Assembly (NCBI GenBank): GCA_019057385.1
Contig: JAHQJS010000004.1
Coordinates: 416,001 to 480,000 of the forward strand
Length of the DNA stretch: 64,000 nt
Direction of reading: 5' to 3'
Source: Candidatus Borrarchaeum weybense
GTDB lineage: Archaea; Asgardarchaeota; Sifarchaeia; Borrarchaeales; Borrarchaeaceae
The notes beneath the pieces were generated by a model. That model searched no databases and was not told where the DNA came from. It was given only the letters and a program-made list of their open reading frames with translations. A program made the translations under genes and the position numbers. This document shows, one piece after another, positions 528 through 46,850 of the stretch (position 1 is its first letter; each line of letters starts with the position of its first letter).

Positions 528-842
528 ATGGCTGTAAATGATGTAATAATGGATAAAATATTATGTATGGTGTACCATTGGCAAGATGCTTATCCCAGTA
601 TATCTGAATTAAATAAGAGATTCGAAATAAAAAATATGGAAACAATTGAAGCAGATAGGGAGATATGGGAAAGAATATTAAAATTACAGGCTAAAAAATA
701 TGTAGAAATCAAAAGACCTCTTATTTCCATAACAAATCATGGCATTAACTATCTAAATAAAAAATATCCAGAACTTGCTGAGCGAAGTATAAAAGAATGC
801 CTTTTTGTAACTTGCAAAGATTGCGATATGTTAAGCTCTTAA
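528..842 (+). CDS. Small winged-helix DNA-binding protein with Cys-rich tail
   Basis: wHTH pattern ILCMVY..SISELNKRF..IWERILKLQAKKYVE..ISITNHGINYL; C-terminal CxxxxCxxC. Confidence 0.55.
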   Translation: MAVNDVIMDKILCMVYHWQDAYPSISELNKRFEIKNMETIEADREIWERILKLQAKKYVEIKRPLISITNHGINYLNKKYPELAERSIKECLFVTCKDCDMLSS

Positions 843-1051
843 TTTTGAATATTCTTTGAGCAATGCCTCTTATTCTAAATAATTTGAAAGACCGCAGAGT
901 GTTTAATATGCGCCTCAAGTCGCTTGACTAGTTAGTGTCCTATGATTATTAAACAATAAACTGGTTTATTTGTTCAGTTTTTTCAATTTGTTCCTGCTGG
1001 TTGATTAAAGGTAATTTTTTGAGTATACGAGGACAAAGGTTTTTGATGATT

Positions 1052-1299
1052 AATTTGTGTCTAAAAATAGAGATTTAAGAAAAACTAGAAGGAAAATTAC
1101 GAAAAAAGGTTATGTGTGTCTTAGATTTGTGGAAATAGAATTGATTAGAATTGAGAAAAATGAATATACTAAAATTAAAATGATCTTTGTCAAAAAATGA
1201 CTAATCAGAAATGAGAATAAGAATTTGTGTCTAAAGAGAAAAAATAGAGCAGGAAATTTAAGATAATTAATTTTTGGACAATTTTTTTAGACACAAATT
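1052..1299. repeat. Three exact copies of 14-mer AATTTGTGTCTAAA (direct 1052-1065, 1222-1235; inverted 1286-1299)
   Basis: Read directly; a weaker copy lies near 1112-1125. Confidence 0.85.
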
Positions 1300-1429
1300 G
1301 AAGGTCTTTTTCATTTGCCCTGTTCAAGTGTTGAAAGATCGTATTGGGCAAAACCATTATCTACTAGGTGTTTGCGTTGTGGATACCAAATCCTTACGCC
1401 TTTTATAAATAAATTTCCAACCATTTTGT

Positions 1430-3133
1430 ATGATCACAATGCCACATATATTGGGATGGTATTCGGTATGGGAACGGTTGGGACGAGCAGGTTATCTAAA
1501 GTTATTTGCTTTTCAGTATAAGGCGGTTTATGCATTCAGGGATGGAAAAGATATATTTGTAAAAGCACCAACGGGTGCAGGAAAGACGCTCATTCCGCTG
1601 ATTTGTGCTACTCTTATTCTTGGAATGAAAAAACGATGTGTGTTCCTTGTACCGACCAGGCGGTTGATCGACCAGACCTATGACCGACTCAAAGACTGGT
1701 TTGAAAGTATACCACATTGCGAAGAAGAGTACAATATCGTAACCTTAACAGGAGATAATCGACCTTCTTACAAAGAAATACGAGAAGTGCACATAATCAT
1801 AACAACCTACGAGTCTTTTAATGGTATGTTGGCAAAACATTACAGACATTCACTTTTGAACAATGTCGGACTTGTGGCGATTGATGAAATGCATTATGTC
1901 GGGGATGTAGAGAGAGGGACGCATCTTGAGGAGGCTATTGTCAAAGCGAAGTTGTGGTTGCGACCTCGTCCTCAGATGATCTACCTTGCGGCTACGTTAG
2001 GGAATATACAAGAAATTGGGGAGTGGTTAAAAGCTACAGTCATCGAAACAAAAAAACGCAAGTCGGAAATCATTGTTGGATCACCCATTAACGTCTATAA
2101 TGAGGATGAACGGTTAAAGGTTATTGCTCAGTTAGTTAAAGAAACGGATCAGATAGAGATAGGGGCAAAGGAAACTGACAAAAGATGTGTGCTGGTTTTT
2201 TGTAGATCGAGATGGCATGCCGAAACTAGAGCACAGAATCTTGCAAAAATGTTGGAGAAGGAAGGATACAAAAAAACTGTTTCATATAGCCACAGAGGAC
2301 TGAAAACTGTGGAACGACAAAAGCGGATGAAAGCGTTTCAAAAGGGTGAAATTGACGTGTTGTTCACCACAACAGAATACAAGGAGGGTGTGAATGCTCC
2401 AGTCCTGCGGGTCATCATAGCTGATACCGAGGTGTTCAATTCTCAGGACATTGAACAGATGATCGGAAGGGCAGCCCGTCCGCGATTTTTTCAGATCGGA
2501 TATGCAAATCTGATTATTCAGGGAAACATAGAAGACATTCTCGAAAATAAAAGAATAAGGATAGAGGAAGGGGTAGCCCATTTTGAGGAATCACCATTGG
2601 AAAGTTGGGCAAAATATCATTTGAACGAGATCATCCTCAACAGGTTAGCTAAGGGTGCCTGTTCGATAGGTCGGCTTATTAGGTATCTCAAAGAGTTTTA
2701 TTTTTACTTCGAGGATACAACTCAGATAAAGAATTGGTATAAAGTTATGGAAAACGCAATAAGTGAACGAGAGATGTTTATGCTTACCGCAGACAACTAT
2801 ATGATACTCTTCTCTTTAATAGATAATGACGATAGATACAATGCGAAGGATAAGAAGAACTTTCACTCTTTCGTAACTGAATTCCTGATGCGTAGTCGCA
2901 AGTGCGCTGAAACACAAAAAAGAAGGCGTAAAAGGGATAAAAAACTCGTACTTGAAAAGAAGATGGCTCTTGTTTTCTTGAAAGAATACTTAACTAATAA
3001 ACTAAAACGTTATGATGCTGAGCTAAAAACTCAAGTTAAAACTCATCTAGGCTACCTCATCCATATTGGGTTTCTTAAAAAACAGGAACTGGAATCTAAG
3101 GCAATAAAGGAAGGATTAGGAAGTGCAGTCTAA
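1430..3133 (+). CDS. SF2 Ski2/Hel308-like helicase, N-terminal part (RecA1/RecA2 plus start of winged helix)
   Basis: Q-motif LFAFQ, Walker A APTGAGKT, VPTRRL, DEMH, LAATL, LVFCRSR, TTEYKEGVNAP, QMIGRAAR. Confidence 0.92.
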   Translation: MITMPHILGWYSVWERLGRAGYLKLFAFQYKAVYAFRDGKDIFVKAPTGAGKTLIPLICATLILGMKKRCVFLVPTRRLIDQTYDRLKDWFESIPHCEEEYNIVTLTGDNRPSYKEIREVHIIITTYESFNGMLAKHYRHSLLNNVGLVAIDEMHYVGDVERGTHLEEAIVKAKLWLRPRPQMIYLAATLGNIQEIGEWLKATVIETKKRKSEIIVGSPINVYNEDERLKVIAQLVKETDQIEIGAKETDKRCVLVFCRSRWHAETRAQNLAKMLEKEGYKKTVSYSHRGLKTVERQKRMKAFQKGEIDVLFTTTEYKEGVNAPVLRVIIADTEVFNSQDIEQMIGRAARPRFFQIGYANLIIQGNIEDILENKRIRIEEGVAHFEESPLESWAKYHLNEIILNRLAKGACSIGRLIRYLKEFYFYFEDTTQIKNWYKVMENAISEREMFMLTADNYMILFSLIDNDDRYNAKDKKNFHSFVTEFLMRSRKCAETQKRRRKRDKKLVLEKKMALVFLKEYLTNKLKRYDAELKTQVKTHLGYLIHIGFLKKQELESKAIKEGLGSAV

Positions 3134-5468
3134 GGTAATAAAGAACGGGAAATATAGCGTAACAGAAACTGGACAATGGGCAAGTCAATTTCTATTAAAG
3201 ACCAGCGATGCAAAGAAGATCCACAAATTTCTCCAGACACAGTATTTTTATTCAGAAGACGACGCTTGTAAAAAACTGGCGACTCTTATAAGTGAGAGTG
3301 TCCGTGAGAACGATAATTCGCGATATAGAGCGCAACAATATGAGTTGTTCATATTATCTTTAGTAGAAGGGTTCGATATTGATGAGGCAGCGGAAAACGC
3401 TCGGATGCGACAAGGGGATGCCGAAGGGTGCAGAAGAACTGCCGCGTGGATTGCAGAGGCAGTTAATGCCTACGTTGGAAAGAACATTCCGAAGATCGCG
3501 GAAATGGCAGAAGGAATTAGTGAAGCGCTTACCGTAGATAAAAGAAGGGAAATAGGACCTGGGGTGCGAAGTTATGCAAAAGAGAAACCCTCGTCATATC
3601 CAGGTATTCAAAAAACAATTTGTTCTGTTATTAATCAATTAGGAATTTGCACATATGATGCGATCCATAACATAATTACTGACAAATATGGTGAGTCAGT
3701 AGATCGAACGACAACAATTTGGAACATCCTTGATTTAAGGGCGAAAGACGAAGTTATAACTTTATCAAGAGGCAAGGGAATAGGGCGTCCCGTAATCCAT
3801 GTGTGTAAAAAGGGAATGAATGTACCTGAACATATGCGCAAGACTTGCGGATCCTGTGTATTTTACATATCCTGTGACGATGATGAAAAAGAACGAGACA
3901 ATCAAAGATTTATCTGTGAACTGCGAAGGGAATGCAACAAGCGCGTGGAAAAAAATATTGTAAGCACGTACGTTACGAGCAATATGGGTGCGTGTAAATA
4001 TCATAATTCGTCTCAAGAGCGAAAAAGACGAAGTTTTCGTAAATTTGAGAGGACAGACACAGGCAAACCTATCTGCCAAATTTGTAAATCGGATGCCGTT
4101 AAGGAACCAACCGCTTATGATCACTACACCATATGTTCCAATTGTAATTCACAGTATTACTACCTTTGCGACGGCAGGTTCAGTGTTCAGCCAGGTGTCA
4201 GAGATTTATTACAGCAAGCATTAGAAGAAATCTATGGAAAGTCCGTTAAACCTGTTAAAAGGTGTGCAAAACTAGAGGGTTCTTTAGATCGGCAATACGT
4301 TGAATTAACCATTAAGAAAGGGGATGCAGCTCATATTGACCAAAATAAACTCATTTATATTCCAAAAGAGGAGAAGACACGTTCTTATTTGTTAGATGCC
4401 ATTGAATGTGTTAGAGTGCTTGACGGTGCATATATCACGCCTTATGTATATGAGAAACTCGATGACAGAATTTTATCTGGCAAGAATGTGAATAGACCGC
4501 CAAACGCTTCCTTTGAAGGGTATATAAACATACCTGACGTGCACAATCAACTGAAAGAACGTATACAAGAAATTCGAGAGCAAGAAGTTGGTTTGGCATT
4601 GGCGAGGATACTTATAATGGGTAAGAAAATGAATAATGCAATTCTTACTCTGCAAGCTGGTGAGGAGGGATTACTGTGCCCAGTAGATGCCAGCAGGTTA
4701 TTTTTCAAACAAATGAATGTTGTCGCCCATACTATCATGTATTGGACGGGAAATAGAGAAAATCTGCTCAGTTTCGAGGCGGTTGGCGAACGATACGCAT
4801 GGAAAGCAATTAAACGCGCCTTGAAGGATACATCTATGCGCTTTGAAAATCGTACACAGGAACGATATATCTTTTCGGTTCCCTATATCGGCAAAGTTAG
4901 GGCACGATCTCCCTTTAGTGCAGGACTTAATGCCATTTATCGCCGTGTCCTCGAAATATGTAGAGAGGTGCTTTGCGAAAAAGGATTCTCTTGGTTTCCT
5001 GGCGAACTCGTACTCCATTATAGAAGAAGAAAAGACCAACAAATCCCCATTGGAACAGCTCTTGATTTCCGAGAGTTGTTTTTGGCACTGTTCAGATTCA
5101 CTTATATGAAAGCGTGCAAGAAGGATCAAATTAGGAATACAGATTTTGTACTGTCAAGTACATCTCGCGAGGAAAAAGTATATACCCTTACATACGAGGC
5201 AGAGGATAAAGTTAGAGACTTAATCGAAAGCGTCATGAATAAAGAGGTATATTATCTTGGAAAACAGATGTCACTTTGGAAAGCAATGAAAGAATGCGCA
5301 CGTTCACTTCGCAACTTTTTATTAGAGGGATCTAAATTTATTCCTTTTGTCTGCGCATTAAATGAGGAGCAATTTAAAAAGATTTTAAAGACTTTCCAAA
5401 ATATAGAGAGGTTTTGTGGACCTTCAGGTAAAGGACCTCCTGTTTCAATGTTTGATATCTTATCATAA
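3123..5468 (+). CDS. cas1: Multidomain Cas1-family integrase: Hel308 C-terminal region + wHTH + Zn fingers + Cas1 domain (~4290-5350)
   Basis: Hel308 tail (SVTETGQWASQFLL; GDAEGCRRTAAWIAEA); CxxC pairs; Cas1 motifs in order: ALARILIMGKKMN, LLSFEAVGERYAW, RFENR, PFSAGLNAIY, VLH, ALDFRELF, terminal ARSLRNFL..FIPF. Confidence 0.85.
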   Translation: MQSKVIKNGKYSVTETGQWASQFLLKTSDAKKIHKFLQTQYFYSEDDACKKLATLISESVRENDNSRYRAQQYELFILSLVEGFDIDEAAENARMRQGDAEGCRRTAAWIAEAVNAYVGKNIPKIAEMAEGISEALTVDKRREIGPGVRSYAKEKPSSYPGIQKTICSVINQLGICTYDAIHNIITDKYGESVDRTTTIWNILDLRAKDEVITLSRGKGIGRPVIHVCKKGMNVPEHMRKTCGSCVFYISCDDDEKERDNQRFICELRRECNKRVEKNIVSTYVTSNMGACKYHNSSQERKRRSFRKFERTDTGKPICQICKSDAVKEPTAYDHYTICSNCNSQYYYLCDGRFSVQPGVRDLLQQALEEIYGKSVKPVKRCAKLEGSLDRQYVELTIKKGDAAHIDQNKLIYIPKEEKTRSYLLDAIECVRVLDGAYITPYVYEKLDDRILSGKNVNRPPNASFEGYINIPDVHNQLKERIQEIREQEVGLALARILIMGKKMNNAILTLQAGEEGLLCPVDASRLFFKQMNVVAHTIMYWTGNRENLLSFEAVGERYAWKAIKRALKDTSMRFENRTQERYIFSVPYIGKVRARSPFSAGLNAIYRRVLEICREVLCEKGFSWFPGELVLHYRRRKDQQIPIGTALDFRELFLALFRFTYMKACKKDQIRNTDFVLSSTSREEKVYTLTYEAEDKVRDLIESVMNKEVYYLGKQMSLWKAMKECARSLRNFLLEGSKFIPFVCALNEEQFKKILKTFQNIERFCGPSGKGPPVSMFDILS

Positions 5469-5703
5469 ATACAATTCACTTTTTGCTCTCTTTTTCGACT
5501 TGGATTAATTTAGACCATCAACCTCTTCCTTTTGGTTCTCTAAGAAATGCTTCTTCTTGGTGAAAAACCTAACTAAGAATAAATTTGATTCAATGTTTAT
5601 TTAAATGAAAAGAAGAACAAGAAAGGTTTTTTCCTCCATCTCCAAAGACATAGATAAAAACGTTACTAGATCGCTTATTTTTACAAAAGGAGTTCATAAA
5701 ATA

Positions 5704-5750
5704 ATCCGTTATACAAAAAGCGTTATTTAAAAACCGCAATGCTTATATAC
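5704..5750 (+). promoter_or_regulatory. Archaeal promoter (BRE + TATA), copy 1, upstream of cas7-like gene
   Basis: TACAAAAAGCGTTATTTAAAAACCGCAATGCTT, identical in copy 2 (6771-6817). Confidence 0.7.
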
Positions 5751-5782
5751 TCGGTTGCAAAGGTATATTTGAGGTTTTCAAA

Positions 5783-6598
5783 ATGAAAAAAACTAAGAAA
5801 CAGATCAATGTTCATGCCTTCACTCCTATTGCGAAACCGATCAATACCTCCATACAGAAAAATTCCACTATGCTTCTTTTGGGAGAAATTCCGTATGTCA
5901 ATGGATCGAAAACATTTACTACCAAGCTGTATTATCTCAAAGGTTTGCGAGGAATGCTGAGGCATGCCTGCATGGACTTAGCACGTGCTTACGATATCGA
6001 GGTCTGTCACAGTTCTGAAAAGACTGAACTCAGGGATGGGACAAAACTCGTCTCGCAAGGGTTTCATCCGCTGGGTGCCTGTGATCCTCCCTGCATTCTG
6101 AGGCGTATCTTCGGTACGTTCAGAGAAGACTCCCGCATTAGTGTTTCCGCCGATCCCATCACTTCTATCAGCCATAAGGAATACATTACCGAAGTTCCCG
6201 TCCAAAAAGTTCATATCGCCAGTGAAAATAGGATTGCTCTTTCCTATGACAGGATCCCCATACAAGACTTTAGACAATCCTATTTTTCAGGTTACTTTAC
6301 CTTTTCCATTGATGCCACCCAATTGACCGATGATGAGATTAAATTTCTCTTGGAATCGCTGTTGCATATAGAGTACTATGGTGGTGGCAGAAGTGCGGGC
6401 TATGGTCATGTCAAAATTCTAAATGTTGAATTGCTGCACATAACAATCGAAAGAAAATTTGAATCTGAGAACGGAACTCTGAAAGTCGTTGAAGAGGAAA
6501 AAGTAACTCCGCTAGAACTTGATACTCTCGATGACTGGACGGAAAGTATATCCCTATCTGCACTGACACAAGAACTAGAATTGATGGATGGGGAGTGA
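5783..6598 (+). CDS. cas7: Cas7-group RAMP protein
   Basis: N-terminal strand + TPI; LKGLRGMLRHA; Cys cluster VCH..GACDPPCILRRIFG; ENRIAL; Gly-rich loop YGGGRSAGYGHVKI. Confidence 0.85.
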   Translation: MKKTKKQINVHAFTPIAKPINTSIQKNSTMLLLGEIPYVNGSKTFTTKLYYLKGLRGMLRHACMDLARAYDIEVCHSSEKTELRDGTKLVSQGFHPLGACDPPCILRRIFGTFREDSRISVSADPITSISHKEYITEVPVQKVHIASENRIALSYDRIPIQDFRQSYFSGYFTFSIDATQLTDDEIKFLLESLLHIEYYGGGRSAGYGHVKILNVELLHITIERKFESENGTLKVVEEEKVTPLELDTLDDWTESISLSALTQELELMDGE

Positions 6599-6648
6599 AA
6601 AAGATGTTGAATAACCTGCAATACTCGTTATTTCCTTTTTTCTCATCT

Positions 6649-6770
6649 AAGACGGAATGCTTCCCTTGTAGCGAGGGGAGCACGTTCTTGTGCATGAGAC
6701 TGAACCATCTTGGAGGTCTGACGCCTCGTCTCATGGGGATGGATGACAGGCAGGGGACGAGAAAAGTCAC
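6649..6770 (+). ncRNA. Putative ~120-nt structured RNA/element, copy 1
   Basis: Invariant blocks shared with 7758-7875, separated by hairpins that differ in sequence but keep pairing; strand inferred from the copy 2 promoter. Confidence 0.65.
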
Positions 6771-6817
6771 ATCCGATTTACAAAAAGCGTTATTTAAAAA
6801 CCGCAATGCTTCTATAC
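6771..6817 (+). promoter_or_regulatory. Archaeal promoter, copy 2, upstream of RAMP-HD gene
   Basis: Near-identical to 5704-5750; followed by a perfect 9-bp hairpin GCCCGTTAT/ATAACGGGC at 6827-6851. Confidence 0.7.
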
Positions 6818-6875
6818 AATTAATATGCCCGTTATAACATTGATAACGGGCTAAAATCTATAAATAGGGATAAAG

Positions 6876-7691
6876 ATGACACAAAATTGGTTTAAATTGA
6901 TAGGAATCACCAAAACGCCTGTGATCACAAGAAGAAGGCGGTTTTTCTATAAATTAGGAGTAATCTCCATTCATGGTCGCCCCAGAGTCTTCGGTAAACT
7001 CACAAAAGGGGAAAGACGCCCACCTAAGACGTATAGGGCGTGGTATGGTGACGTCGAGTTTATCGTGCCAGAAGACAGACTTGACGACGCGCTCGCCATT
7101 GATTGTTTCGGGAGTTTCACTAATGAAGGCATGGGACAAATGCAATGGAAAGAAGCGAAAAAACTCTACAAAAAACCCCTCTATACTCCGAGAAAAGCCA
7201 AGATCAGAAAAATGCTTCCGAAACTTTCAGAGACGCAAGAAAAACTATTAATAGGTTTTTTACTTCATGATTTTGTCCATACCGAAAAACACAACAGCAA
7301 AATCTATACCGAGGTTAATATATATGATGGATTTGTCTATGAATTGGCTAAAAATCATCATAATTACACGATAGACGATAGAGAAATCCCTTTGCTCTGT
7401 ACTCTTCAATATTACGATAGGCTTTCTTCAAGAATCTCAAGAAAATTCCGCTTTTCTGCGTCCTCACGCTATCGCGTCACTGAAATAGAAAAAATAGATT
7501 TCGACGAACTTAAACAGGAGATCGAAACGCGCCAATATTCCCTATACGCGCTTTATAGTTATGTCTATAAGTCTCAGACACTCAATAAAATCAACGAAGC
7601 ACTCAAATTCGGTTTTTCATCGCTAAAAAATCATCTCTTATTAATGGTTAACCTGTATATTGATGACTCACAAGAGGCTATATACTTATGA
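6876..7691 (+). CDS. Minimal RAMP (Cas5-like) fused to Cas10-type permuted HD nuclease
   Basis: FKLIGITKTPV start, G-loop FGSFTNEGMGQMQW, then LLHDFVH, KNHH, YYDRLSS and C-terminal SLKNHLL. Confidence 0.75.
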   Translation: MTQNWFKLIGITKTPVITRRRRFFYKLGVISIHGRPRVFGKLTKGERRPPKTYRAWYGDVEFIVPEDRLDDALAIDCFGSFTNEGMGQMQWKEAKKLYKKPLYTPRKAKIRKMLPKLSETQEKLLIGFLLHDFVHTEKHNSKIYTEVNIYDGFVYELAKNHHNYTIDDREIPLLCTLQYYDRLSSRISRKFRFSASSRYRVTEIEKIDFDELKQEIETRQYSLYALYSYVYKSQTLNKINEALKFGFSSLKNHLLLMVNLYIDDSQEAIYL

Positions 7692-7757
7692 CACGAGAAA
7701 CTCTCGTTTTGAATAGTGGCGTTTATATAGGTCTTTGCAAGCGAATATACAAGTTAC

Positions 7758-7875
7758 AAGGCGGAATGTTCCTCGCATCACGCGGAGAACACGTTCTTGT
7801 GCATGAGACTGAACCTGAGAGGTCTGACGCCTCGTAGAAGGGAATGAATGACAGGTAGGGGACGAGAAAGGTCAA
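7758..7875 (+). ncRNA. Putative ~120-nt structured RNA/element, copy 2
   Basis: Homologous to 6649-6770; TATA box TTTATATA at 7722-7729 just upstream. Confidence 0.7.
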
Positions 7876-7935
7876 AAAACAAGTGGTGTATGCGATAAAG
7901 TGGACGTGTACCAAAAAGTAATATATAAACGATGG

Positions 7936-7957
7936 AGGGCTCATTTGAGCCCTTTTT
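7936..7957 (+). terminator. Hairpin followed by T-tract
   Basis: AGGGCTC-ATTT-GAGCCCT-TTTT. Confidence 0.5.
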
Positions 7958-8023
7958 ATCTATTTAAAAACTGAGTTTTCCCGCCGATTTGGTCAAAAAT
8001 ATAAAACTGATATTTATGATAAA

Positions 8024-8311
8024 GTGGATGTGTATGAAGGTGGAACTTGTCAATATTGCAAGGCAATCGTCAAAACCGCGCTACAATCTCTACACAAGAA
8101 AGGAGACATTTCGCTAGTCAAAGATATGCAAGTTATTGTTGGTAAAAACCCTTCCGAGCCATATTCGAAATCAAGTTTAGATTTTATTGTAGGCGATTGC
8201 GCATGTGAATCGACAGATTACGAGGGTATTGAAATTCCTGGTTGTCCACCCTTTGACGCTTTCGTAAAAATCAGAAAAGCAGTGCACAACAATGTTTCTG
8301 AGAAAACATAA
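8024..8311 (+). pseudogene. Probable C-terminal fragment of a DUF362-type Fe-S protein
   Basis: GTCQYC..VIVGK..IVGDC..IPGCPP pattern, normally the tail of a longer protein; N-terminal part absent. Confidence 0.5.
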
Positions 8312-8428
8312 TTTTCTTAAGTATAGTTCTAAATTGTCACTCGATTCATAAGTCAAATTTTCAAATATTCATCCATCAATTACACAATCGATCTAGTAAA
8401 GTTCGATTAAAAGGAAAAGGGGAGTTAA

Positions 8429-9172: not shown

Positions 9173-9251
9173 AATGATTATGTTCTTCAATATCACGACA
9201 GAAGTTCCTCAAGTATTTCAGGAAAATTCAGATTTTCTGCGCCATTATTCA

Positions 9252-9330
9252 GAGAACACTTTCTTGTGAATTAAACTGAACTTAAAAGGTCTAACGCCTT
9301 ATAGAGGTTCATAATAAAACGAAAAGTTAA
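9252..9330 (+). repeat. Decayed third copy of the 120-nt element
   Basis: GAGAACACTTTCTTGTGAATTAAACTGAACTTAAAAGGTCTAACGCCTT aligns without gaps to 7785-7833. Confidence 0.75.
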
Positions 9331-9490: not shown

Positions 9491-9739
9491 GGTTTAGATT
9501 ACTTCTCGTTGAAATCGCCGAATTACCTGAAAAATTTCCTGATTTCATTTTCTTGGCTGTCCACGATGGCAAAATAATTGATTTTCTTCTAAGTGCAAGA
9601 TCAAGCGAAAAACAAATTTTGATATTCTTTTGCCTTCATTTGTCAAAACCAAAACTGTGAAATAAAGAATCTGCCCATAAAGCACCTCATTCATATAAGA
9701 CTTACATTAGTGATTACTAAGAATAAGGAGGAAAACTAA

Positions 9740-46809: not shown

Positions 46810-46850
46810 GGGAATGAATGACAGATAGAGGGAAGAGAAAGGTCATAAAC
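46810..46850 (+). repeat. Decayed 3' fragment of the 120-nt element
   Basis: GGGAATGAATGACAGATAGAGGGAAGAGAAAGGTCA versus GGGAATGAATGACAGGTAGGGGACGAGAAAGGTCA at 7840-7874. Confidence 0.7.

Follow-up and report, generated by a model that had tools for sequence, protein, structure and literature searches.

The window analysed here is a 64,000 nt stretch of the Candidatus Borrarchaeum weybense genome (genome G000, 4.18 Mb, with contigs referred to as C3, C4 and C5 and loci as L0xx). It contains a cluster of five open reading frames (ORFs) in one orientation, four of which encode a helicase, a Cas1 protein, a Cas7-like RAMP protein and a small RAMP protein fused to an HD nuclease domain (RAMP-HD), together with two copies of a structured RNA element (Table 1). 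This gene set is that of the published ARAMP module of Asgard archaea. A tblastn search of the genome detected six full cassettes with the order helicase-Cas1, RAMP, element, RAMP-HD, element, as well as several partial ones, with 36–62% identity to the window copy for helicase-Cas1 and 63–71% for the two RAMP proteins. At three of the paralogous sites the cassette is a precise insertion of 6.9–10.6 kb, and these sites are empty in other genomes of the genus.

Table 1. Features of the window locus and its right flank, with positions counted from the first nucleotide of the window.
Feature	Position	Strand	Evidence or remark
104-aa ORF	528..842	+	only in window copy; doubtful member of the system
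Superfamily 2 (SF2) helicase, Hel308/Ski2 type, 567 aa	1430..3133	+	PF00270 (DEAD) E=2.7e-30; PF00271 (Helicase_C) E=7e-16
Imperfect 34-nt tandem duplication, frame-shifting	3096..3148	+	3096-3114 vs 3130-3148; read from sequence
Cas1 protein, 781 aa: N-terminal region, two Zn clusters (eight invariant Cys), C-terminal Cas1 (~440-781)	3123..5468	+	TIGR00287, Foldseek
Promoter-like repeat P1, A/T-rich TATA-like box, 5′ of RAMP gene	5704..5750	+	94% identical to P2
Cas7-like (Csm3/Cmr4-type) RAMP, 271 aa	5783..6598	+	PF03787, 27.8 bits vs cut-off of 22.1
Structured RNA element, copy A	6646..6771	+	nhmmer E=1e-30; covariance model 133.6 bits
Promoter-like repeat P2	6771..6817	+	3′ tail of element A and promoter of RAMP-HD gene
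Perfect hairpin between P2 and RAMP-HD start codon	6829..6851	+	paralogs keep position, not sequence
RAMP-HD, 271 aa: small RAMP (Cas5/Cas6-like RRM, 1-105) and Cas10-type HD nuclease domain (118-271)	6876..7691	+	AlphaFold2 model, pLDDT 86
TATA-like box TTTATATA	7722..7729	+	~29 nt 5′ of element B
Structured RNA element, copy B (scaffold)	7755..7876	+	nhmmer E=3.8e-32; covariance model 133.1 bits
Guide-like tail T′ of element B	7881..7914	+	26/34 identical to G004 DUF362 empty site, first 11 exact
GC-rich hairpin and T-run, terminator-like end of element B RNA	7934..7958	+	read from sequence
Second target-like copy T, right island end	8005..8034	+	matched by T′ (1/991 null)
Displaced native DUF362 3′ end, with 95-aa ORF 8024-8311; right island junction	8037..8335	+	98% identical to G004
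Relic: decayed RAMP-HD fragment and partial element (third copy)	9184..9302	+	81% identical to 7403-7460, then element core

The top NCBIfam matches of the helicase were Hel308-type helicases, all far below the equivalog cut-offs, and its ORF is 63% identical to the N-terminal half of a fused paralog. A preliminary description of this DNA had proposed a helicase-Cas1 fusion, which is correct for the five other full copies in the genome, where helicase-Cas1 is a single ORF of 1323–1363 aa, but not for the window copy, where the 34-nt duplication shifts the frame and thereby splits the gene into two ORFs overlapping by 11 nt. By sequence, the Cas1 assignment was weak (TIGR00287, E=7.3e-7 over residues 477–738, 28.6 bits with a cut-off of 71.7), and two paralogs, 36% identical to the window Cas1 protein, scored 40.3 and 35.9 bits against Pfam Cas_Cas1 (PF01867, cut-off 22.3) in a six-frame scan of the genome. 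A profile of the 781-aa family gave no match to PDB sequences, and only fold comparison succeeded: an AlphaFold model of the Cas1 region (residues 440–781, with ten relatives as input; pLDDT 72, pTM 0.76) gave 45 Foldseek matches at E≤1e-3, all 50 of the listed rows being Cas1 or casposase, with 7mi4_B (2.9e-8), 6opm_B (4e-8) and 4n06_B (1.6e-7) at the top and TM-scores of 0.55–0.61. Judged by this model, the third ORF carries a Cas1 fold. In eight paralogs the eight Cys residues ahead of the Cas1 domain are invariant, as are E552, H632, D648 and E651 within it, which by motif resemblance may be the counterparts of the catalytic Glu/His/Asp triad of Cas1. A word-based search with the Cas1 region returned 4 proteins and an exhaustive profile search just 63 representatives (E≤1e-3), mostly long fusion proteins, and this Cas1 subfamily is therefore rare.

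The RAMP protein has ten paralogs at 64–71% identity and another at 40%, and a G-rich loop and a Cys/His cluster are invariant. RAMP-HD did not belong to any sequence family, and its profile gave no match to PDB sequences. Structural alignment of its model with VIA-align connected residues 1–105 to the RAMP/RRM domains of Cas6, Csm4, Cmr3 and Csf subunits (Z 6–7), and residues 118–271 to the HD domain of Csm1/Cas10 (6ifk_A, Z 8.5, root-mean-square deviation 3.6, 140 aligned residues). Across 51 Asgard homologs of RAMP-HD, H131-D132, H139 and H161-H162 are invariant and D181 is almost so. The domain assignments made previously for Cas1, the Cas7-like RAMP and RAMP-HD were thus upheld by Foldseek, PF03787 and VIA-align, respectively. 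Cas10 polymerase/cyclase domains are absent from the locus, where the HD domain stands alone, fused to the small RAMP. A model of the complex between RAMP and RAMP-HD reached an ipSAE of 0.66, compared with 0.00 for the best control, a value attained by 58/80 solved complexes and 2/110 mismatched pairs; the runs agreed in at least 84% of contacts, with a partner pLDDT of at least 72, and placed the interface on the RAMP domain of RAMP-HD. This predicted pairing may stem from likeness to the solved Csm/Cmr complexes. For the 104-aa ORF, neither a Pfam or NCBIfam family nor a paralog in the genome was found, and the Atlas search gave unnamed clusters only, so that the winged helix-turn-helix domain suggested for it was undetectable by these searches. 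The gap of 590 nt upstream of the helicase gene contains a perfect 16-nt inverted repeat (1052-1067 and 1284-1299, spaced by 216 nt).

Neither cas2, cas6 and PolB genes nor a CRISPR array were found in or beside the locus in Pfam, NCBIfam and repeat searches, no TnsB, TnsC or TniQ was present among the ORFs scanned, and no RuvC-type RNA-guided nuclease was found in the ORFs of the locus using Pfam and NCBIfam. The only conventional array of the genome (C4:148434-152119, 37-nt repeats, ~49 units) is located 264 kb from the window beside a canonical cas1 gene (C4:153602-154474), and its sequence is unrelated to the structured element. The view of an array-less locus was therefore borne out within the window, and directly to the left of the window there is a defence island in place of a cas operon or array.

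ARAMP modules were reportedly first described in 2020 by Makarova, Wolf, Shmakov, Liu, Li and Koonin in CRISPR J 3:156. They have been summarised as an array-less, type III-derived and nuclease-associated system with Cas7-like and Cas5-like RAMPs, a nuclease domain and a distinct Cas1, restricted to Asgard archaea (PMC8730458, PMC12669027). The window locus has both types of RAMP, an associated nuclease domain, a linked divergent Cas1 and no array, and all named homologs of RAMP-HD were from Asgard archaea (Borr-, Prometh-, Hod-, Heimdall-, Thor- and Hermodarchaeota), with Candidatus Borrarchaeum as nearest named relatives; the earlier suggestion that the locus is of the ARAMP type therefore agrees with every one of these features. 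The summaries differ from our data in naming no RNA partner and no mobility, and describe the mechanism as enigmatic (PMC8730458, PMC12669027). Our literature search likewise found no ARAMP RNA partner, mobility or guide rule, with the original 2020 description, which may hold some of this, lying outside that search. Compared with these summaries, the present analysis adds the conserved RNA scaffold, together with polymorphic, precise insertions and target-matching tails. The genome also contains a divergent RAMP/RAMP-HD pair (L018, C5:80663-82259), which is ~37–40% identical, lacks helicase-Cas1 as well as a match to the RNA model, and resembles the form present in Hod-, Thor- and Heimdallarchaeota.

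The structured element is 123 nt long, with 30 matches in the genome, 24 of which are full length. The preliminary report of two copies each of a ~120-nt element and a promoter was confirmed, the duplication of P1 and P2 being common to all six loci with the same cassette arrangement. Elements are always on the gene strand, with one 3′ of the RAMP gene and one 3′ of the RAMP-HD gene, and a few are solitary. Copies 3′ of the RAMP gene have a T-run before them and, directly behind, the promoter of the next gene, which is a duplicate of the RAMP-gene promoter; element A, which is of this kind and lacks its own promoter, is probably co-transcribed with the RAMP gene. The TATA-like box upstream of element B was found at the same distance in at least seven other copies that follow a RAMP-HD gene, which suggests an independent small-RNA promoter. 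RNAalifold analysis of a MAFFT alignment of 24 copies gave five helices, with 95.8% paired cells versus 40–55% when the 3′ partners were slid. In stem 1, 8/9 pairs are altered on both sides in a compensatory manner; the other helices are almost invariant and hold G-U pairs that are possible on the sense strand only. The 123-nt RNA is hence a conserved, structured, multicopy RNA on the gene strand, and it appears to be undescribed, with no match in Rfam at the gathering score for the whole window.

A covariance model of the element matched all 4/4 genomes of the genus (3–22 copies each) and one genome of a sister family (33 copies), and none of the 35 other Asgard genomes searched. The expected co-occurrence of the element with homologous loci was consequently seen within the genus and one sister family but did not extend to the distant RAMP-HD homologs (~35% identical) of Hod-, Thor- and Heimdallarchaeota, beside which the model found no element; these distant modules may use another RNA, or none. 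At L085 (C4:903.4-904.1 kb) there is a third element, and by reading alone the tail of the second element appears to enter a gene resembling a GIY-YIG nuclease. The syntenic position in G004 (C118) has kept the terminal element but has no helicase-Cas1, RAMP or RAMP-HD.

Mobility was assessed by setting 20 kb of sequence around each locus against four other genomes from the genus (congeners G001–G004). The smallest insert, 6.9 kb at L086 (C3, 7586-14504), contains only helicase-Cas1, RAMP, RAMP-HD and two elements, and provides a new start codon (ATG) plus four codons to the housekeeping-type gene in which it stands, with no other defence genes; the site is empty in G004:C28 and G002:C29, where the flanks are continuous. 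L087 (C5, 7987-18549) is a 10.56-kb insert with an empty site in G004:C77. A third insert of 10.35 kb at L083 (C4, 339-346 kb), which additionally holds a TPR protein, is located in the 5′ end of ftsY and is missing from G004, G002 and G001; here the original promoter and first 43 codons have been moved to the far end of the insert, and a diverged copy restores the gene. Inserts are usually found at the end of a host gene, which is repaired by the insert. Since the congeners have intact genes and G000 has displaced native fragments, these differences represent insertion in the G000 lineage and not deletion elsewhere. No recombinase families other than Cas1 were found in the scanned L083 and L086 inserts, and no family B DNA polymerase in the ORFs of the window locus or of these 6.9-kb and 10.35-kb inserts.

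The window copy is located at the right end of a 28.4-kb island, which is absent from that site in G004:C57 and G002:C146, where the homolog of C4:395618 is joined straight to the homolog of window position 8037. This insert interrupts the 3′ end of a DUF362 gene and ends ~130 nt 3′ of element B; the DUF362 3′ end now joined to the gene (C4:395320-395618) is just ~70–80% identical to G004, and the native end has been displaced to the right junction. The island contains genes for TIR, RNase III, Piwi/Argonaute, HD, AAA, SMC-like and Hsp70-like proteins, after which comes the ARAMP operon. The ~21 kb to the left of the window (C4:395618-416500, L082 and L081) hold defence-type genes within the same strain-specific insert, with an RNase III with dsRNA-binding domain directly 5′ of a 776-aa Piwi/Argonaute protein, a TIR protein, an HD plus HD_assoc_2 protein, an AAA ATPase, a 1063-aa SMC-like protein and a 950-aa Hsp70-like protein.

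At four loci (L086, L083, L087 and the window), one element is followed by a linker of 3–11 nt, a tail of 30–45 nt, which comes to about 30 nt for the window match, and a GC-rich hairpin with T-run, and the order of scaffold, tail and hairpin read in the window thus recurs in three paralogous loci. The tails are same-strand copies of downstream host DNA whose first position lies 0–7 nt past the insert end nearest the element. The tail of L086 (7875-7906) is identical to the empty site of G004 at 31/32 positions, abutting the junction, and to the occupied site at 26/32; the L083 tail matches ftsY codons 44–55 at 29/36 positions, starting at the crossover, and the L087 tail, which belongs to an internal element, matches the junction flank (score 44, 0/40 null). 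For the window tail, 0/991 random 3-kb pieces scored as high as the G004 empty site. In a blind test, every tail was compared with 35 kb on either side, and the significant matches were the junction matches, one match beside a RAMP-only cassette, and promoter duplications, all on the same strand; the junction and RAMP-only matches were downstream (0/40 null each). The informative part of the element is this variable 3′ tail, and not the scaffold. The mobile-element role proposed in the preliminary description is accordingly supported both by the empty sites of congeners and by RNA tails that copy the sequence of the insertion point.

A G004 element with 82% nucleotide identity to the G000 copy at C4:904-910 kb is located at another site, and has a different 76-nt tail matching its own flank, with a T-rich run in place of the hairpin. 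At no fewer than eight congener sites lacking an element in G000, homology to G000 host DNA starts 5–9 nt past the scaffold, and inserted DNA can accordingly terminate at the scaffold 3′ end itself. Three other patterns were considered and rejected: tails as self-targeting spacers gave only chance-level matches of 17 nt elsewhere in the genome, a degenerate scaffold 3′ end before the host match was significant for L086 (0/500 shuffles) and not for the window, L083 or L087, and only in G004:C46 does the insert sequence that separates the tail from its host match repeat the left element end. Tandem elements 26–33 nt apart were found at L039 (G001:C73 1179-1487) and L058 (G001:C176 4694-4986), the second one having a TATA-like box to itself; the final scaffold terminates with GGTGAT a few bases before the host start codon, and may act as promoter and leader of the host gene. 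At L059 (G004:C9 1292-3023) the RAMP and RAMP-HD genes are separated by three consecutive elements. The tails of two of these elements, 46 and 41 nt long, match C5:332704-332749 and C5:351104-351144, which are the inner ends of a variable 18.4-kb segment of G000 for which no counterpart was found in G004 and which contained no clear virus or plasmid genes.

We put the chances at about even that the cassette is a mobile element driven by Cas1-helicase, which chooses its insertion site by a scaffold-plus-guide RNA held by the RAMP effector; the data cover sequence and structure models, from which RNA binding and integration are predicted. In this model, the Cas7-like subunits together with the Cas5-like/HD subunit would hold the RNA of scaffold and tail, and its tail would pair with the unoccupied target, whereupon the site would be opened and the element placed directly 5′ of the match by the HD domain and the helicase-Cas1 integrase. 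Such a mechanism would be analogous to the homing spacers of CRISPR-associated transposons (CAST), with Cas1 taking the place of the Tn7 transposase and a single scaffold RNA that of the array. Helicase-Cas1 is taken as the integrase because it is the sole integrase-like gene in the 6.9-kb unit, and the 28.4-kb defence island may be cargo of the window copy. Guidance by the tail is favoured by its position, always directly behind a full scaffold, starting exactly at the insertion point and with a hairpin behind it, and by the RAMP/HD effector being kept in every copy. As a more tentative elaboration, a type III-derived mini-effector made of Cas7-like subunits and a Cas5-HD subunit may read a single RNA of scaffold plus spacer, with the spacer captured from the attachment site by helicase-Cas1 and directing adjacent insertion. 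If so, the combination of one giant structured repeat, one spacer and Cas1 would represent a living intermediate on the way from casposons to CRISPR adaptation.

Several observations weigh against guided insertion. The window copy may be immobile because its helicase-Cas1 gene is split, its tail match is the weakest of the four, and in the blind test this match fell short of significance within G000 (8/40 null). Among the six full loci, L084 and L085 have no tail-flank pair. Tail length varies from about 30 to 76 nt, and 48–570 nt of insert DNA separates the tail from the host match. The differences between tail and host are mostly at third codon positions, hence the tails represent the same gene from another lineage, and imprecise excision carrying flanking DNA would yield such tails too. 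Terminal inverted repeats were not apparent at those ends that were inspected, which was no systematic search, and the only candidate for a target duplication was one of 7 nt in L086. Finally, the ftsY and DUF362 inserts bear diverged copies of 125–300 nt of the displaced gene end, like classical integrative elements.

The latter points fit an explanation by passive carry-over, in which the cassette would be a site-specific integrative element and its RNA not a guide. Excision would take short pieces of the right flank and longer pieces of the left flank, and the circle would re-enter the homologous site of a new host via Campbell-type or Cas1-mediated recombination, with the scaffold RNA serving in element-end recognition, in regulation, or as portable promoter and leader of the interrupted host gene. 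The mainly synonymous tail-host differences, the tails of up to 76 nt and their distance from the host match are all as expected from such carry-over, and so are the diverged replacement gene ends present in the inserts (125 nt for ftsY, ~300 nt for DUF362, and the ATG plus four codons at L086) and the eight or more congener sites where a scaffold end abuts host DNA, some of these scaffolds ending with GGTGAT before the host start codon. However, carry-over leaves unexplained why the tail starts exactly at the insertion point, why it is positioned behind a full scaffold and followed by a terminator-like hairpin, and why a RAMP effector with HD nuclease has been kept in every copy, and 70% identity over 125 nt is a poor substrate for homologous recombination. 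It is the main rival reading, though in our view rather unlikely.

It is improbable, in our estimation, that the locus functions primarily in defence, with the RAMP/HD effector and scaffold RNA sensing or cutting invaders, the tails being single spacers placed by Cas1-helicase, and the insertion polymorphism reflecting merely the usual mobility of defence islands. This is how ARAMP is viewed in reviews (PMC8730458, PMC12669027), and the window copy indeed stands amid TIR, RNase III, Argonaute/Piwi, HD, SMC-like and Hsp70-like genes; the three scaffolds in G004:C9 also form an array-like trio, with two tails matching the inner ends of the 18.4-kb segment undetected in G004. However, that segment lacks clear virus or plasmid genes, the minimal 6.9-kb insert is in a housekeeping-type gene and free of other defence genes, and the placed tails match conserved host genes (ftsY, DUF362 and a PRC-barrel-like gene) at their own junction rather than foreign DNA. 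A homing nuclease in the manner of TnpB/IscB, in which the RNA-guided RAMP/HD complex would cut the empty allele, the element would be copied in by homologous repair from an occupied copy of the chromosome, and Cas1-helicase would capture the tail instead of moving the element, seems improbable to us as well. The HD nuclease, the mosaic identity to congeners around the junctions (resembling co-conversion tracts) and the better fit of the L086 tail to the naive than to the occupied site are in line with it, but repair-driven copying alone does not yield displaced duplicate gene ends.

In a comparison of the predicted guided element with known systems, CAST (Tn7-like; I-F, I-B and V-K) have in common with it a nuclease-poor CRISPR-derived effector in a mobile element, cargo genes, and guides directed at the chromosomal attachment site where the element ends, for which the tails at four loci are the candidates here; this is a functional analogy only. 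The ARAMP cassettes differ in having no TnsA/B/C or TniQ and no array, leaving Cas1-helicase as sole candidate integrase, in their type III-derived effector that retains an HD domain, and in a match that abuts the junction (0–7 nt), whereas it is 50–66 bp away in CAST. Casposons similarly use a Cas1-homolog integrase, which is a candidate role here, and the Cas1 model matches the casposase 6opm nearly as well as CRISPR Cas1; in contrast to casposons, PolB is absent, neither inverted repeats nor a 14–15-bp target duplication were seen at the ends inspected, and RAMPs and an RNA are present. The OMEGA systems (obligate mobile element-guided activity; IscB/TnpB with omega RNA) also have a scaffold RNA at the element end with a flank-derived 3′ part, and keep or spread the element, but the predicted ARAMP effector is a multi-subunit RAMP complex with HD instead of RuvC, and its putative guide is in most cases a copy of the flank kept inside the element, where OMEGA uses the flank as such. 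Type III and IV effectors resemble it in their Csm3-like backbone, Cas5-like subunit and Cas10-type HD domain, and differ by the Cas10 polymerase/cyclase, Cas11, Cas6 and array that are lacking here, and by an 8-nt repeat handle versus the 123-nt scaffold. The 3′ end of the scaffold may resemble a type III 5′ handle. Finally, VIPR combines a RAMP-family protein with a non-CRISPR RNA, but it is phage-encoded, has tandem GGY/NN repeat RNAs and a gapped code, and represses transcription, with no Cas1 mentioned in the abstract (preprint 10.64898/2026.04.26.720920). Repeats of the GGY/NN type were absent from the window locus.

With these data ARAMP, known since 2020 as a puzzling gene set, gains a candidate partner RNA whose scaffold, promoter and terminator are defined, evidence for mobility from precise inserts down to 6.9 kb and empty sites in sister species, and a sequence rule connecting the 3′ tail of the RNA to the insertion point, which makes its mechanism testable. 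If this rule reflects guidance, it would represent RNA-guided DNA integration by a Cas1 integrase, of which we know no description so far, and it would bear on the origin of CRISPR adaptation from casposon-like elements and might be developed into a new tool for programmable insertion. Should it instead stem from carry-over of flanks, the cassettes would still stand as a new family of Asgard integrative elements that repair the ends of genes.

Further traces of the system and other repeats were noted outside the cassettes. The relic downstream of the window locus stands just 3′ of a ZIP transporter gene, and in G003:C234 the homolog of window position 9641 directly abuts a full element, the DUF362 fragment and the ZIP gene being absent there. 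A lone 36-nt sequence at 46810-46845 of the window, remote from any cassette, is 92% identical to the 3′ part of the element. Short repeats of ~120–350 nt resembling miniature inverted-repeat transposable elements were found at L086 (15118-15436 and 6932-7285) and L078 (6270-6471), occurring dozens of times in G000 and the congeners, and one of these repeats lies 300 nt from the L086 insertion site.

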